A DNA stretch of 12,156 nucleotides from IMG/VR virus record IMGVR_UViG_2663763227_000007; one strand, given 5' to 3'. Each line of letters starts with the position of its first letter. Positions within the stretch are counted from its first letter, which is position 1. The position numbers and the translations under genes were made by a program. This document shows, piece by piece, positions 1,941 to 8,133 of this stretch. The notes below the pieces were generated by a model. The model saw only the letters and a list, made by a program, of their open reading frames with translations, ran no database searches and was not told the origin of the DNA. Source of the DNA: a virus. Lineage: Duplodnaviria; Heunggongvirae; Uroviricota; Caudoviricetes.

Positions 1941-2606
1941 ATGACACAGACTGAATCAGCGATTCTGGCGCATGCCCGGCGGTGTGCGCCTGCGGAGTCG
2001 TGCGGCTTCGTGATAAGCACGCCGGAGGGGGAGCGGTATATCCCTTGTGTGAATATTTCCGCGGAGCCGGAGGCGTATTTTCGTATCGCACCGGAAGACT
2101 GGCTGCGGGCAGAGATGCAGGGGGAGATTGTGGCGCTGGTCCACAGTCATCCCGGTGGTCTGCCCTGGCTGAGCGAGGCGGACCGGCGGCTGCAGATAAA
2201 GAGTGCCCTGCCCTGGTGGTTGGTCTGCCGGGGTGACATTCACAAATTCCGCTGTGTGCCACATCTGACAGGACGGCGCTTTGAGCACGGGGTGACGGAC
2301 TGTTACACGCTGTTCCGGGATGCTTATCATCTGGCGGTCACCGGCTTTTACCGGGTGCCCCTGTCCTCTGCACAGGCGGGCGATATTCTGCTGTGCTGCT
2401 TTGGTGCTTCGGTACCGAACCATGCCGCCATTTACTGCGGCAACGGTGAGCTGCTTCACCATCTGCCTGAACAACTGAGTAAACGGGAGAGGTATTCCGA
2501 AAAATGGCAACGACGAACGCATTCTGTCTGGCGTCACCGCCACTGGCACGCATCCGCCTTTACGGGGATTTACAACGATTTGGCCGCCGCCTCAGCCTGT
2601 ATGTGA
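1941..2606 (+). CDS. K: Tail tip assembly protein K (lambda gpK-like); JAB/MPN metalloprotease plus NlpC/P60-like domain
   Basis: ATG at 1941 inside the longer ORF-track frame 1680..2606; N-terminus MTQTESAILAHARR as in lambda K. JAMM motif visible (HSHP-x7-S-x2-D in VALVHSHPGGLPWLSEAD); NlpC/P60-type Cys context (DCYTLFRDAY). 3' end overlaps I by 103 nt in another frame, as in lambda. Confidence 0.9.
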   Translation: MTQTESAILAHARRCAPAESCGFVISTPEGERYIPCVNISAEPEAYFRIAPEDWLRAEMQGEIVALVHSHPGGLPWLSEADRRLQIKSALPWWLVCRGDIHKFRCVPHLTGRRFEHGVTDCYTLFRDAYHLAVTGFYRVPLSSAQAGDILLCCFGASVPNHAAIYCGNGELLHHLPEQLSKRERYSEKWQRRTHSVWRHRHWHASAFTGIYNDLAAASACM

Positions 2607-3184
2607 ACACGGCAGCGGAAGCCATTCGCGCCCTGTCGATGCAGATGCCGGGCTTTCGCCGTCAGATGAACGAAGGCTGGTACCAGATACGTATTGCCGG
2701 TGATGACACGGCACCGGAGGCGGTGTACGCCCGTCTTCACGAACAGCTGGGTGAGGGAACGGTCATCCACATTGTGCCGCGACTGGCCGGGGCCGGAAAG
2801 GGTGGACTGCAGATTGTGCTGGGGGCGGCAGCCATCGTGGGCTCTTTCTTCACGGCCGGTGCCTCGATGGTGTTATGGGGTACAGCCCTGAGTGCCGGCG
2901 GTTTTTCTGCCACCACGATGCTGTTTTCACTGGGGGCCAGCATGATACTGGGCGGTGTGGCCCAGATGCTGGCCCCGAAGGCAAAAACACCGGATTACCG
3001 CGCAACGGATAACGGCAGACAGAACACGTACTTTTCCTCACTGGATAACATGATTGCCCAGGGGAACCCGATGCCGGTGCCTTACGGGGAAATGCTGGTT
3101 GGCTCCCGCCGTATATCCCAGGACATCAGCACCCGTGATGAAGGCGGGGGCGGAAAGGTCGTGGTTATCGGGCGGCAGGGGTAA
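2504..3184 (+). CDS. I: Tail tip assembly protein I (lambda gpI-like), 226 aa
   Basis: 226-aa product with ...ICLYGDLQRFGRR...QNTYFSSLDNM...VVVIGR motifs matching lambda gpI as recalled. GAGAGG Shine-Dalgarno about 12 nt upstream. Hydrophobic Gly/Ala-rich central segment. Confidence 0.9.
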   Translation: MATTNAFCLASPPLARIRLYGDLQRFGRRLSLYVNTAAEAIRALSMQMPGFRRQMNEGWYQIRIAGDDTAPEAVYARLHEQLGEGTVIHIVPRLAGAGKGGLQIVLGAAAIVGSFFTAGASMVLWGTALSAGGFSATTMLFSLGASMILGGVAQMLAPKAKTPDYRATDNGRQNTYFSSLDNMIAQGNPMPVPYGEMLVGSRRISQDISTRDEGGGGKVVVIGRQG

Positions 3185-3230
3185 AAAGAATAAAAAAATC
3201 CCGCAGTGATCGCGGACAGGAACTGCGGGA
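3185..3230 (-). terminator. Intrinsic terminator on the minus strand (hairpin plus U7 tract)
   Basis: Inverted repeat tcccgcagt (3199-3207) / actgcggga (3222-3230), 9-bp stem with a 14-nt loop. Immediately followed on the minus strand by T7 (complement of A-run 3192-3198). Not T-rich on the + side, so oriented for leftward transcription. Confidence 0.5.
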
Positions 3231-3289
3231 GAGTTACGAAGATTAAGTGTAAGGAATTATTCTTATATCACGACAAAAAAATTAACGCA
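3190..3289 (-). ncRNA. Candidate ~100-nt small RNA (antisense moron between I and J), bounded by a sigma70-like promoter and the intrinsic terminator
   Basis: Minus-strand TTCACA - 16 bp - TATAAT promoter (plus coordinates 3322-3295) lies about 65 nt upstream of the 3199-3230 terminator hairpin. No ATG in the predicted transcript; a GTG is followed immediately by a stop. AT-rich insert not present in lambda (as recalled). Ends are approximate. Confidence 0.3.
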
Positions 3290-3294
3290 GAGAA

Positions 3295-3322
3295 ATTATA
3301 CGCGCCACAGTCAGTTTGTGAA
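3295..3322 (-). promoter_or_regulatory. Sigma70-like promoter on the minus strand (-35 TTCACA, 16-bp spacer, -10 TATAAT)
   Basis: Reverse complement of 3317-3322 is TTCACA (5/6 match to TTGACA); reverse complement of 3295-3300 is TATAAT (6/6); spacer 16 bp. Confidence 0.35.
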
Positions 3323-3393
3323 AATGTGAAGATATTCAGAATTTTTATGCCATTACCGGTTTTAACCAACAGGATTATCGGTGGGCATGAAAG

Positions 3394-3425
3394 AAAACCC
3401 CGGTATCTGCTGATACCGGGGTTTC
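3394..3425. terminator. Strong near-perfect hairpin (13-bp stem, 4-nt loop) with T-rich flanks on both strands; bidirectional terminator-like
   Basis: aaaccccggtatc (3395-3407) / tgct loop / gataccggggttt (3412-3424). Followed by tttctgttt on the + strand; on the minus strand followed by ttttctttcat. Confidence 0.45.
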
Positions 3426-3527
3426 TGTTTAGCATGGCAGAAATGTGTTTCATGCTTTTCGGGCGAAGGATATCCGACTTCTGTACGGAATGGCAAGTGG
3501 CGGTTAATTTATTCAGGGGAAGGCTGT

Positions 3528-6500
3528 ATGGGAAAAGGTGGCGGTAAGGCACACACGCCTCGCGAGGCGAAGGATAATCTCAAATCCACGCAGATGATGA
3601 GTGTGATTGATGCGATTGGTGAGGGACCGATAGAAGGTCCGGTGAAGGGACTGCAGAGTATCCTGGTGAACAAAACCCCGCTGACGGACACGGACGGTAA
3701 TCCCGTGATACACGGTGTGACCGCGGTCTGGCGCGCCGGGGAGCAGGAGCAGACACCACCGGAAGGCTTTGAGTCCTCCGGAGCTGAAACCGGACTGGGC
3801 GTGGAAGTGACGAAGGCAAAACCGGTGACGCGCACCATTACGTCCGCGAACATTGACCGCCTGCGGGTTACCTTCGGGGTGCAGTCACTGGTGCAGACCA
3901 CGTCAAAGGGCGACCGTAATCCTTCCTCTGTCCGGATTTTGATTCAGTTACAGCGTAATGGTCGCTGGGTGACGGAAAAGGACGTCACCATTAACGGCAA
4001 GACCACCTCACAGTTCCTGGCCTCGGTGATTCTGGATAATCTGCCTCCCCGGCCCTTTAACATCCGGATGGTCCGGGAGACAGCGGACAGCACCACGGAC
4101 CAGCTGCAGAATAAGACGCTGTGGTCGTCATACACCGAAATCATCGATGTGAAACAGTGCTACCCGAACACGGCCATTGTGGGGCTGCAGGTGGATGCGG
4201 AGCAGTTCGGCGGCCAGCAGATGACGGTGAACTACCATATCCGCGGTCGCATCATTCAGGTGCCGTCAAACTATGACCCGGAAAAACGCACGTACAGCGG
4301 TATCTGGGACGGCAGCCTGAAACCGGCATACAGCAACAACCCGGCCTGGTGTCTGTGGGACATGCTGACTCACCCGCGCTACGGCATGGGAAAACGTCTG
4401 GGGGCGGCGGATGTGGACAAGTGGGCGCTGTATGCCATCGGGCAGTACTGCGACCAGACGGTCCCGGATGGTTTCGGGGGGACCGAGCTGCGGATGACCT
4501 TTAATGCGTACCTGGCACAACAGCGTAAGGCGTGGGACGTTCTCAGTAATTTCTGCTCTGCGATGCGCTGTATGCCGGTATGGAACGGTCAGACGCTGAC
4601 GTTCGTTCAGGACCGCCCGTCGGATGTGGTGTGGCCGTACACCAGCAGCGATGTGGTGGTGGATGATAACGGCGTGGGTTTCCGCTACAGCTTCAGTGCC
4701 CTGAAGGACCGGCACACGGCGGTGGAGGTGAATTACACCGACCCGCAGAACGGCTGGCAGACCTCCACGGAACTGGTGGAAGACCCGGAAGCCATACTGC
4801 GCTACGGACGCAACCTGCTGAAGATGGACGCGTTCGGCTGTACCAGCCGCGGTCAGGCCCACCGTGCCGGGCTGTGGGTGATAAAGACCGAACTGCTGGA
4901 AACGCAGACGGTGGATTTCACGCTCGGGTCACAGGGGCTGCGTCACACACCCGGTGACATCATTGAAATCTGTGATAACGACTATGCCGGGACCATGACC
5001 GGCGGACGTGTCCTGTCCATCGATGCCGCCAGCCGTACCCTGACGCTGGACCGGGAGGTGACACTGCCGGAGACCGGCACGGCCACTGTTAATCTGATTA
5101 ACGGCAGCGGTAAGCCGGCGAGCGTGGCCATCACCGCACACCCCGCGCCTGACCGGATACAGGTCAGCACCCTGCCGGATGGTGTGGAGACATACGGTGT
5201 GTGGGGACTCTCCCTGCCGTCACTGCGTCGTCGTCTGTTCCGCTGTGTCTCCATCCGGGAAAACACGGACGGCACCTTTGCCATCACGGCGGTGCAGCAC
5301 GTACCTGAAAAAGAAGCCATCGTGGATAACGGGGCCCGCTTTGAGCCGCAGTCAGGCACCCTGAACAGCGTTATCCCACCGGCAGTGCAGCACCTGACGG
5401 TGGAGGTGAGCGCAGCTGACGGCCAGTATCTGGCGCAGGCTAAATGGGACACGCCGCGGGTGGTGAAGGGCGTGCGCTTCAGTCTGCGCCTGACCAGTGG
5501 TAAGGGAACGGATGCCAGACTGGTGACCACCGCCATCACCGCAGACACGGAGCACCGTTTCAGCGGCCTGCCACTGGGGGAATACACCCTGACGGTCAGG
5601 GCGATTAACAGTTATGGCCAGCAGGGCGAATCGGCCACCACCACCTTCCGGATTAACGCGCCTGCAAAACCCGCCACCATTGAGCTGACGCCGGGGTATT
5701 TTCAGATAACGGCGGTACCGGTGCTGGCGGTGTATGACCCGACGGTGCAGTTTGAGTTCTGGTTTTCGGAAAAACGCATCACGAACACGGCACAGGTGGA
5801 AAAATCTGCCCGTTATCTGGGGACCGGCAGTCAGTGGACTGTCCAGGGCGATCGGATTAAGCCGGGGATGGATTTCTGGTTTTATGTGCGCAGTGTCAAC
5901 CTGGTGGGCAAGTCTGCATTTGTGGAAGCCAGCGGGCAGGCCAGCAATGATGCAAAAGGGTATCTGGAATTTTTCCGTGGTCTGATAGATGAGACGCTGC
6001 TGGGGCAGGCACTGAAAAAGCGCATTGATGCGTCAGCCCTGCGATCGGATGTCACTCAACTGGAAGAGAATATCGGACAACTGGAAGAAGACATCCGTCA
6101 GCGGATGGACACGGATATTGCGGAAGTGACCCGGAAAATCGGGGAGGCGGAAAACAGCCTCACGCAGCTGGTTGCGAAAAAGAATGAGGATCAGACGCTG
6201 GCCATCGCGCAGGTGAGTCAGAAAGTGGACCGTGTCAGCAGTGAAATCTCACAGACGGTCAGTCAGAGCAGTGAGGAAAATACCCGACAGATAGCACAGG
6301 TCCGCCAGTACGTGGACAAAAAGCAAAGTGAAATCAAGCAGACAGTCAGCCAGGGCCAGTCAGAAAACGCCCGGCAGATAGCACAGGTCCGTCAGTACGT
6401 GGATGAAAAAGGGAGTGAAATTGCCTCGACCACGGATAAAAAACTGGGTGACCAGGCCGTGACCATACAGCAAATCCAGCGGGTTCAGTCAGACACGCGC

Positions 6501-7328
6501 GATAATCTGAATGCCATGTATATGCTGAAGGTGCAGAAAACGAAGAAGGGTATTCCGTATGTGGCCGGGATTGGCGCGGGGATCGAGGATGTCGATGGTC
6601 AGACGCTGAGTAACATTCTGCTGCAGGCCGATCGCATTGCGATGATTACTCCGGAGAACGGTAACACCACGCCGTTATTTGTGGCGCAGGGGAATCAGCT
6701 GTTCATGAACGACGTGTTCCTGAAGCGACTGTTTGCGGTGAGCATCACGTCATCCGGCAATCCTCCGACGTTTTCCCTGACGCCGGATGGCAGGCTGACA
6801 GCCCGCAATGCGGATATCAGTGGAGCCATCACGGCGAATACCGGCACGCTCAATAATGTCACCATTAACGAGAACTGTGTCATCAGAGGGAAACTGTCTG
6901 CAAACCAGATTGAAGGCGATCTCGTTAAAACAGTGGGTAAGGCTTTCCCCCGTGACTCCCGTGCACCGGAGCGTTGGCCATCAGGAACCATTACCGTCAG
7001 GGTTTATGACGATCAGCCGTTTAACCGGCAGATTGTTATTCCGGCGGTGGCTTTCAGCGGTGCCAGACATGAGCGGGAGAACAGCGATACTTATTCGTCA
7101 TGCCGCCTGATAGTGAAGAAAAACGGTGCTGAAATTTATAACCGTACCGCGATGGATAATACGCTGGTTTACAGTGGTGTTATTGATATGCCTGCTGGTC
7201 GCGGCCACATGACGCTGGAGTTTTCTGTATCAGCATGGTGGGTAAATGGCTGGTATCCCACAGCAAGTATCAGCGATTTGCTGGTTGTTGTGATGAAGAA
7301 AGCCACTGCAGGCATCACGATTAGCTGA
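3528..7328 (+). CDS. J: Tail tip / host specificity protein J (lambda gpJ-like central tail fibre), 1266 aa
   Basis: N-terminus [22 protein letters not shown] and long collinear similarity to lambda J as recalled (e.g. [70 protein letters not shown]). GGGGAAGG Shine-Dalgarno upstream. About 134 aa longer than lambda J (1132 aa). Confidence 0.95.
6240..6425 (+). repeat. In-frame 87-bp tandem repeat (2 full copies plus a partial) inside J, encoding a 29-aa repeat
   Basis: Copies start at 6240, 6327 and 6414 (agtgaaatc...), period 87 bp and in frame. Encoded repeat SEI(S/K)[19 protein letters not shown]. Confidence 0.8.
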
Positions 7329-7345
7329 ATTTTATAACCCCAATA

Positions 7346-7371
7346 CGGGCGCCAGAAATGGCGCCTTTTTT
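7346..7371 (+). terminator. Rho-independent terminator downstream of J
   Basis: GGCGCC (7348-7353) / agaaat loop / GGCGCC (7360-7365), followed by ttttttatt. Confidence 0.7.
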
Positions 7372-7395: not shown

Positions 7396-7995
7396 ATGCG
7401 TAAATTATGTGCTGTTATTCTGTCCGCAGTAGTCTGGCTGGTTGCCGCTGGTACGCCAGCGAGCGCAGCAGAGCATCAGTCCACACTAAGCGCCGGGTAT
7501 CTTCAGACCCACACTGATATGCCAGGAAGCGATAATCTGAACGGGATTAACGTGAAATACCGTTATGAATTTACGGACACGCTGGGGCTGATTACGTCTT
7601 TCAGTTATGCCGACGCAGAAGATGAACAAAAAACGCATTACAGCGATACCCGCTGGCATGAAGATTCCGTGCGTAACCGCTGGTTCAGCGTAATGGCGGG
7701 GCCGTCTGTGCGCGTGAATGAATGGTTCAGCGCGTATGCGATGGCTGGTGTGGCTTACAGCCGTGTGTCGACTTTCTCCGGGGATTATCTCCGCGTAACT
7801 GACAACAAGGGGAAAACGCACGACGTGCTGACCGGAAGTGATGACGGTCGCCACAGCAATACCTCTCTGGCGTGGGGGGCTGGCGTGCAGTTTAACCCGA
7901 CCGAATCCGTGACCATTGACCTTGCTTATGAAGGTTCCGGTAGTGGCGACTGGCGAACGGATGCATTTATTGTTGGTATCGGATACCGTTTCTGA
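7396..7995 (+). CDS. lom: Lom-family outer membrane protein (Ail/Lom/PagC family beta-barrel), 199 aa
   Basis: N-terminal signal peptide (MRKLCAVILSAVVWLVAAGTPASAA). C-terminal AYEGSGSGDWRTDAFIVGIGYRF ends in aromatic F and matches the lambda Lom C-terminus as recalled; internal INVKYRYE and YAMAGVA motifs. GAGAGG Shine-Dalgarno; flanked by terminators (moron). Confidence 0.9.
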   Translation: MRKLCAVILSAVVWLVAAGTPASAAEHQSTLSAGYLQTHTDMPGSDNLNGINVKYRYEFTDTLGLITSFSYADAEDEQKTHYSDTRWHEDSVRNRWFSVMAGPSVRVNEWFSAYAMAGVAYSRVSTFSGDYLRVTDNKGKTHDVLTGSDDGRHSNTSLAWGAGVQFNPTESVTIDLAYEGSGSGDWRTDAFIVGIGYRF

Positions 7996-8098: not shown

Positions 8099-8133
8099 GA
8101 AGCCCGTGGCGTCACTGCTGCGGGCTTTTTTTA
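8099..8133 (+). terminator. Rho-independent terminator after lom
   Basis: agcccg (8101-8106) ... cgggct (8121-8126) stem followed by T7 run (8127-8133), just upstream of the stf start. Confidence 0.6.

Follow-up and report, generated by a model that had tools for sequence, protein, structure and literature searches.

A probable PasB-family small RNA gene, diverged and uncatalogued, in the I-J spacer of a lambdoid prophage

The window considered here, a 12,156-nt stretch of DNA from a virus of the Caudoviricetes (IMG/VR record IMGVR_UViG_2663763227_000007), comes from the tail-tip end of a lambdoid E. coli prophage. Its feature of interest is a small antisense transcription unit lying between tail genes I and J. 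Pfam identifies the tape-measure C-terminus, M, L, K, I, J, Lom and a tail-fibre N-terminus, all encoded on the plus strand, and the CFT073 counterpart of gene I is annotated as a tail assembly protein. The spacer between I and J (3185-3527) measures 343 nt, versus 60 nt in lambda (end of I, 15444; start of J, 15505). Its GC content falls to 0.35 at 3225-3374, compared with 0.55-0.65 in the flanks. An initial annotation, made from the letters alone, had remarked on an I-J spacer that was both unusually long and AT-rich; the Pfam assignments of the flanking genes and the base composition bear out both points.

The minus strand of the spacer had been described in that annotation as carrying a near-consensus sigma70 promoter followed by a hairpin and a U7 tract, and each of these elements was recovered. 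The promoter (TTCACA, a 16-nt spacer, TATAAT) agrees with the consensus at 11 of 12 positions. It is the sole site in the window that matches TTGACA-N16-TATAAT with at most one mismatch (0.04 expected; present in 8 of 200 shuffles), and it ranks as the top promoter-like site of the whole 12 kb. Transcription is predicted to start at the G at 3288, seven nucleotides past the -10 hexamer, and the hairpin begins 65 nt past the same hexamer. The predicted RNA of 97 nt accords with the proposed transcript of about 100 nt devoid of an ATG-initiated open reading frame (ORF). Direct reading finds no AUG in it, and its only GUG or UUG frames end after two codons. A coding role for the locus was considered and rejected on this ground, and also on the ground that the long ORFs crossing the spacer (3206..3547 on the plus strand, 3268..3552 on the minus strand) traverse modules that are swapped among relatives. 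Upstream of the promoter lies a CRP-like element, invariant in nearly all alleles that were fished by the terminator word alone. It is the only match to TGTGA-N6-TCACA with at most one mismatch in the window, yet 0.48 such matches are expected by chance, and its non-canonical center further weakens a reading as a CRP site; the element is suggestively placed and conserved, and is retained as a lead only.

By position and by sequence, the unit is a homologue of PasB (E2348CN_0006), an 83-nt small RNA (sRNA) of the EPEC (enteropathogenic E. coli) strain E2348/69 (NC_011601, 1466343..1466261, minus strand; Table S6 of Pearl Mizrahi et al. 2021, PMC8550237). The kind of gene is thus already known, and the version in the window is a diverged, uncatalogued allele. 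A covariance model (CM) built from nine E2348/69-type PasB sequences only matches 3288..3192 of the minus strand over model positions 1-98 of 98, at 56.7 bits (E=6.9e-13); the next-best match has E=0.44, and lambda's own I-J spacer yields no match to the model. Global identity between the window RNA and PasB is 74% over the primary transcript, and the longest exact word in common with the 83-nt PasB is 25 nt. The published northern probe for PasB (AATCCCGCAGTGATCGCGGAGCT; PMC8550237, Table S6) is identical in its first 20 nt to window 3197-3216. Judging from homology to the annotated 5′ end of PasB, the mature window RNA could begin near 3275 and measure ~84 nt.

In E2348/69, PasB sits between tail assembly gene E2348C_RS07635 (end 1466255) and gpJ (start 1466496). 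Like the window unit, it thus occupies the I-J spacer of a lambdoid prophage on the antisense strand, an arrangement found likewise in CFT073 and Sakai. The two units have near-identical promoters from -55 to -7, a 5′ GCGUUA, an (AAN)n tract at the same place, UCCUU and AUCUUC cores, the terminator stem and the U7 tail. They differ in the tract itself, which reads AAC-AAA-AAC-AAC in PasB versus AAG-AAU-AAU in the window allele, and in the flanks of the putative seed (UCCUUCACAUUGAUCUUCAUUUG in PasB, UCCUUACACUUAAUCUUCGUAAC here). It is considered highly likely that 3288..3192 is the gene for a PasB-family, prophage-borne, Hfq-dependent small regulatory RNA that would act by the steps proposed below. 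Like phage morons (Juhala et al. 2000, cited in PMC4104026), the unit has an autonomous promoter and terminator between late genes; unlike morons such as lom, it does not code for a protein and runs antisense to the operon. The earlier proposal of a moron-like, non-coding unit antisense to the tail operon, possibly a regulatory sRNA, is therefore supported through the homology to PasB. The family search suggested at the same time gave a divided result: published prophage sRNAs supplied PasB, and no Rfam family matches, either at gathering score across the whole window or at E<=10 across 3100-3620. Sub-threshold Rfam matches (SSRC34_2, PK-repZ and others) were dismissed as chance similarities driven by the terminator.

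Table 1. Features of the I-J region of the window and of its flanking genes.
Feature	Position	Strand	Remarks
Tail assembly gene I	2504..3184	+	Pfam Lambda_tail_I, E=3e-16; RefSeq homologues begin at the equivalent of 2603
Discrete PasB-family cassette, from the terminator to about -60 of the promoter	3185..3348	-	Only part in common with Stx phages
Predicted primary transcript, 97 nt, PasB-family sRNA	3288..3192	-	Covariance-model match, promoter, terminator
U7 tail, 3′ end	3198..3192	-	Likely Hfq proximal-face site; U6-U8 kept in all alleles
Rho-independent terminator hairpin, core stem CCCGCAG/CUGCGGG	3230..3199	-	7-bp stem invariant in 15 diverse alleles
Putative seed region UCCUUACACUUAAUCUUCGUAACU, RNA nt 34-57	3255..3232	-	Conserved UCCUU/AUCUU cores, variable flanks; unpaired in consensus fold
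(AAN)3 motif AAG-AAU-AAU, candidate Hfq distal-face site, RNA nt 25-33	3264..3256	-	A positions conserved
-10 hexamer TATAAT, 16-nt spacer	3300..3295	-	Variants retain TATAAT, TAATAAT or TGATAAT
-35 hexamer TTCACA	3322..3317	-	Kept in 47/48 unique variants
Upstream promoter element, CRP-like TCTGA-N6-TCACA	3325..3340	-	Center near -44.5; weak lead
J-proximal spacer module, 'long' type, separate from the sRNA cassette	3349..3527		Module swapping
Very stable 10-bp hairpin between two U-rich tracts, candidate bidirectional terminator/insulator just upstream of J	3398..3421		dG about -27 kcal/mol
Tip attachment/host specificity gene J	3528..7328	+	Seven GpJ Pfam domains

Five accessory sRNAs of EPEC E2348/69 were defined by RIL-seq (ligation and sequencing of interacting RNAs; PMC8550237). 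PasB, which ranks among EPEC's most abundant accessory sRNAs bound by Hfq, was validated by northern blot. Overnight static LB gives a higher level of it than Dulbecco's modified Eagle medium, and in a delta-hfq strain it drops ~100-fold (log2 fold change -6.8, adjusted P 2e-40). Nearly all of its chimeras (about 99-100%) have PasB in the RNA2 position, and its RIL-seq partners number 37, of which 30 are coding sequences (CDS) or 5′ untranslated regions (5′-UTRs) (PMC8550237).

A third allele resides in enterohemorrhagic E. coli Sakai, where the CM finds matches of 69.7 bits each in the I-J spacers of prophages Sp15, Sp14 and Sp11, antisense to the tail genes. It carries ...AAAAAUAACUCCAUAACGUUAAUCUUCAUCG... 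and is distinct from both PasB and the window allele. Very probably, these genes correspond to EcOnc22/23/24, three mutually homologous RNAs recorded in Table S2 of Tree et al. (2014, PMC4104026) as peaks of Hfq cross-linking with cDNA analysis (Hfq-CRAC) in Sp15/Sp14/Sp11, and reported there as ~85 nt by northern blot and 'destabilised' in delta-hfq. The equation is made here, as it appears in neither PMC8550237 nor PMC4104026 in the portions considered. It follows from the presence of I-J genes in exactly Sp11, Sp14 and Sp15, combined with a shift of coordinates: each published peak has a position 122-124 nt lower than the PasB-family gene in NC_002695.2, on the matching strand, and AgvB1, taken as an anchor, has paper coordinates ~137 nt lower than those of NC_002695.2. 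If the equation holds, two alleles having the promoter and terminator of the window unit are expressed, Hfq-dependent RNAs, and by analogy with them the window allele would be expressed as well. The UTI89 sRNA C271 (Khandige 2015) was tried as expression evidence from an extraintestinal pathogenic E. coli (ExPEC) and set aside, its probe sequence being unrelated. A full-text literature search for the terminator sequence returned no matches.

Comparison of relatives distinguishes fixed from variable parts of the unit. Loci were fished by exact words from the promoter or the terminator; the alignment comprised 48 unique units taken from phage contigs, and pairwise identities were taken over 66 unique units. 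Mean pairwise identity is 71.6% in the RNA body and 87.8% in the adjacent 150 nt of gene I, and it amounts to 93.7% in the promoter (-60..-1) and 80.9% in the terminator, two values that are inflated because the fishing words came from those regions. The consensus fold consists of the terminator plus an unpaired 5′ part (about nt 1-65 to 1-75).

Within this unpaired part, two signals of selection stand out from the variable body. The A positions of the (AAN)3 tract are kept in 46-48 of the 48 variants, four of the six being invariant, and each third position splits about 28/19. This periodic pattern is as would be expected of an Hfq distal-face A-R-N site. UCCUU (nt 34-38) is kept in 43-48 of the 48 variants and AUCUU (nt 46-50) is invariant, with variable bases between and around them. 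Two hallmarks of an Hfq class II-like sRNA are likewise present in the window RNA, namely a terminator hairpin with a U7 tail (at least six U) and A-R-N repeats.

The spacer itself is modular, as the initial annotation had suspected in asking whether the insert might be a discrete cassette. Only 3185-3348 matches Stx1a and Stx2c phages and PhiR5_1, at 95-98%, and this sRNA cassette recombines across loci independently of the remaining, J-proximal module. The latter comes in two unrelated types, of 197 nt and about 95 nt, that are freely combined with sRNA alleles. Conservation of the unit extends well beyond chance, the discrete cassette being found in 1836 of 5426 complete E. coli genomes.

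That count departs from the published picture. The existing PasB survey used the 83-nt query with a word size of 28 and reported variants differing by 'only a few nucleotides', such as PasB and PasB-2, which differ at position 27 (Zhu, Shabalina & Storz 2026, bioRxiv 10.64898/2026.05.13.724894); the position-27 difference was recovered here. With its longest common word of 25 nt, shorter than the survey word size, the window allele falls outside this variant set. When the published strategy (megablast with 83-nt PasB) was repeated on the 5426 genomes, 956 gave a match, every one at >=90% identity, whereas the sensitive search with the window unit yielded the 1836 cited above. By best place, 636 records are at least 99% identical to the window allele (about 12% of genomes) and 809 fall in the 60-80% band. 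From the difference between the two strategies, at least about 880 genomes have only alleles that the published search cannot seed, among which the window allele occurs most often. It is also the most frequent single allele in the IMG/VR sample, and its carriers, mostly strains other than those with PasB, include the ExPEC strains CFT073, S88 and ATCC 25922, in addition to CE10 and others. The CFT073 copy is at NC_004431.1, 1364148-1364244, minus strand.

Outside E. coli, a scan of one genome per species with the promoter word found only E. albertii and two short contaminant-like contigs (Asaia, Streptomyces), in agreement with the reported restriction to Escherichia and Shigella. The two contigs, one of 546 nt filed as Asaia platycodi (L122) and one of 3.4 kb filed as Streptomyces flavalbus (L124), look like E. 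coli contamination of those assemblies. Among the RefSeq and phage records listed, nothing is annotated at the sRNA locus. In the CFT073 spacer (9001-9343 of the retrieved locus), RefSeq tags pass from C_RS06865 (tail assembly protein) to C_RS06875 (gpJ) and C_RS06870 is absent, so that a feature may once have been called there and then withdrawn.

The partners of PasB offer a view of how the family might act. The partners with most chimeras among the rows considered of Table S3 of PMC8550237 are E2348C_2648 (71 chimeras), the napF 5′-UTR (70), map (67), yhhX (57), the nlpD intergenic region (IGR; 56), hflX (55), fabR (50), bfpB (33), caiF (27), the tolC 5′-UTR (26) and rplX (25). Eleven sites were fetched, comprising nine of these top partners (without the nlpD IGR and bfpB) together with yrdD.smg.IGT and the ydbJ 5′-UTR (19 chimeras each). 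A start codon or ribosome binding site (RBS) is overlapped by seven of the eleven, those of napF, caiF, tolC, ydbJ, yrdD, yijD (downstream of fabR) and the gene after E2348C_2648. Global RNAduplex predictions were long, loop-rich and uninformative, and were therefore replaced by scoring of ungapped helices. For eight of the eleven sites the best such helix falls within PasB nt 37-60 (UCCUUCACAUUGAUCUUCAUUUGU), a segment that is homologous to nt 34-57 of the window RNA and overlaps the seed proposed by Zhu et al. from conservation alone (bioRxiv 10.64898/2026.05.13.724894). PasB is predicted to form a 16-nt duplex with the napF start region, with 15 Watson-Crick pairs and reached by 0 of 60 shuffles, and has an 11-nt perfect match to the yijD Shine-Dalgarno sequence.

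A mechanism can be proposed by extension from these relatives. The constitutive-looking sigma70 promoter would fire in the lysogen to give the 97-nt RNA, possibly trimmed to about 84 nt and ending with its U7 tail at the intrinsic terminator, as homology to two expressed alleles suggests. Conservation of the motifs points to an RNA that is largely unstructured 5′ of the terminator and that would engage Hfq through the U-tail on the proximal face and (AAN)3 on the distal face. If the positions of the PasB partners are a guide, UCCUU...AUCUUC would then pair with purine-rich GAAG/AAGGA at or near the RBSs of host and prophage mRNAs, and pairing would regulate their translation or stability. Most likely, then, the window RNA is a trans-acting, Hfq-dependent sRNA, probably class II-like, that would pair at RBSs. 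Since the nucleotides flanking both cores differ from those of PasB, the window allele probably has its own set of targets in ExPEC-type carriers.

Position in the late operon raises another possibility, namely that the RNA is mainly cis-acting. It would pair with the late tail-operon mRNA to cause decay or processing (e.g. by RNase III), or interfere with transcription, and so tune J, lom and stf, with trans partners secondary. The RNA is by its very location complementary to the plus-strand late transcript (36/36 nt over the seed-region query, 3229-3264). The I-J position is kept in all alleles and in free phages, and PasB has the lowest synteny diversity among Pas sRNAs (Zhu et al., bioRxiv 10.64898/2026.05.13.724894). 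The RNA body, more variable than the neighboring genes, would also be tolerated in a cis-antisense RNA because both strands change together. The RNA nevertheless covers only untranslated spacer, from 8 nt past the I stop codon to about 240 nt before the J start codon, and overlaps no RBS or coding sequence. Perfect antisense pairing would need neither a conserved (AAN)3 tract nor UCCUU/AUCUU cores. In RIL-seq, PasB behaves as a classical trans-acting sRNA, given the 30 of 37 partners in CDS or 5′-UTRs, and no I-J sense-strand partner is among the rows of Table S3 considered (PMC8550237). A mainly cis-acting RNA is accordingly judged unlikely. Within the window, the search for a trans target of this allele gave none better than chance, the best outside match scoring 10.5 versus a shuffle mean of 11.5.

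A combined role can also be imagined, in which PasB-family alleles present a fixed scaffold (promoter, (AAN)3, UCCUU/AUCUU cores, terminator) whose pairing flanks are exchanged by recombination, each RNA serving its own host regulon and also pairing perfectly with a single late tail transcript, that of its own phage; this dual arrangement is put forward as a long shot. It is speculative that the hypervariable body would also help to control J/lom/stf in cis or to tell co-resident lambdoid prophages apart.

Prophage sRNAs that act on other sRNAs provide a further comparison. AgvB and AsxR (Rfam RF02702 and RF02703), like the PasB family, are short Hfq-binding RNAs of lambdoid prophages in pathogenic E. 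coli, with their own promoter and terminator, ARN motifs, and a conserved scaffold joined to a variable pairing part. An anti-sRNA or sponge of this type would use its ARN tract to bind the Hfq distal face, sequestering a core sRNA or Hfq itself instead of acting on mRNAs directly. Compatible with such a function for the window RNA are its conserved (AAN)3 tract, as described for AgvB/AsxR, its prophage origin and a modular build of conserved 3′ and variable 5′ parts resembling the EcOnc01-03 group (PMC4104026). Identity with AgvB or AsxR was ruled out by position and by the lack of any match in sequence or structure: neither Rfam model matches even at E<=10, and Rfam does detect AgvB in Sakai. 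AgvB and AsxR lie beside stx and lysis genes downstream of PR', not in the tail operon (PMC4104026). They act on core sRNAs, whereas the listed partners of PasB are almost all mRNAs, the sole sRNA-locus partner in the rows considered being the pasA-adjacent IGR (PMC8550237). Because PasB partners are mRNAs and no AgvB/AsxR match exists, a sponge role seems quite improbable. Of the regulatory or anti-sRNA function raised in the initial annotation, the regulatory part is thus supported and the anti-sRNA part is not. In Sakai Sp10, AgvB (96.5 bits) and STnc100 (145.8 bits, Rfam) directly adjoin each other in convergent orientation (428-682 of the retrieved locus), and STnc100 overlaps the opposite-strand 'hypothetical protein' ECs_1960.

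Several points weigh against a trans-acting PasB-family sRNA at this locus. The identities of promoter and terminator are raised by the manner of fishing noted above. The structure has no support from covariation, which could not arise here, as the sole common helix is the invariant 7-bp terminator stem. The EcOnc22-24 equation depends on an inferred coordinate shift between genome versions. On the side of targets, only two of the eleven fetched sites (napF and yijD) form individually strong helices, the others not being individually significant against shuffles, and the original authors found no common PasB target motif (0 occurrences in Table S7, PMC8550237). The best target pairings of PasB are lost in the window allele. 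Finally, transcript, Hfq-binding or target data for the window allele were looked for in the literature, and none were found.

Such a negative outcome would fit a silent or decaying relic, in which promoter and terminator look good and the allele is unexpressed or functionless in its carriers. Some copies have indeed been destroyed by an insertion sequence within the promoter, and PasB often lies outside PHASTER-predicted prophage regions (Zhu et al., bioRxiv 10.64898/2026.05.13.724894). In the interrupted copies (L122 and L130, among the IMG/VR and genome contigs), the element is inserted just past the -35, at ...TTCACAAACTGA/ACCGCCCCGGGAATCCTGGAGACTAAACTCCC..., and splits the sRNA gene. A relic would hardly be expected, however, to have its promoter as the best-conserved part of the locus, or to recur at >=99% identity in the 636 records. 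Two other alleles with an equal promoter, PasB and very probably that of Sakai, are expressed at high level, and phages that are free or inducible (PhiR5_1, Stx phages, PPompW phages) carry the window allele. With a conserved promoter and two expressed sister alleles, a silent relic is very improbable indeed.

Several points give the allele a wider relevance. By the counts above (1836 versus 956 genomes), the published survey captures only about half of the family's spread, and its uncatalogued diverged allele is present in reference ExPEC strains. A common Hfq scaffold with differing seed surroundings makes the alleles a natural series for the study of PasB function, suited also to asking whether intestinal and extraintestinal pathotypes differ in how prophages re-program the post-transcriptional networks of the host. 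Each PasB-family allele may give its lysogen a different host regulon, and the ExPEC-type allele would have targets distinct from those of PasB. For the uncatalogued allele, which roughly doubles the family, a distinct regulon is likely, at odds that appear about even. The sRNA gene merits an Rfam family and annotation.

Other elements of the window lie outside the sRNA cassette. The hairpin at 3398..3421 has a z-score of -5.3 on the minus strand and -5.9 on the plus strand; it is not listed in the terminator scan of the window. A candidate second small unit (3389-3480, minus strand) could encompass it, with a weak promoter at 3496..3467 (TTGCCA, an 18-nt spacer and TATCCT), then a 6-bp hairpin (AGCAUG/CAUGCU) and the 10-bp hairpin followed by UUUUCUUUC (dG about -30 kcal/mol). 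Because UUUCUGUUU comes after this hairpin when the plus strand is read, the element could alternatively serve in front of J as an insulator or a bidirectional terminator, and conservation does not separate these two readings because the J-proximal module is nearly invariant in relatives.

The short type of J-proximal module (about 95 nt; 3400-3450 in the E2348/69 locus, L001, and also in L125, L136, L009 and others) bears a different hairpin at the equivalent place. This hairpin is formed by CAGGCACC...GGUGCCUG or by CAGGCAUCC...GGAUGCCUG, a compensatory change. With the T-tract TTGTTTTTGTG behind it on the plus strand, it is a candidate terminator for that strand, lying within the late operon about 40 nt upstream of the J start codon. 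Further downstream, lom (7396-7995) is flanked directly by strong plus-strand intrinsic terminators (7347-7366 and 8099-8128), as is classic for morons. Counting the hairpin before J as well, the tail end of the late operon has several terminators that should be passable only by an anti-terminated polymerase. A 150-aa ORF downstream of the tail-fibre genes (11427-11879, plus strand) matches Pfam R_equi_Vir (E=5e-34), the Rhodococcus equi virulence-associated protein (Vap) family, which is unexpected as cargo of an E. coli prophage; the counterpart region of the CFT073 prophage differs, containing a methyltransferase and remnants of tail-fibre assembly genes.

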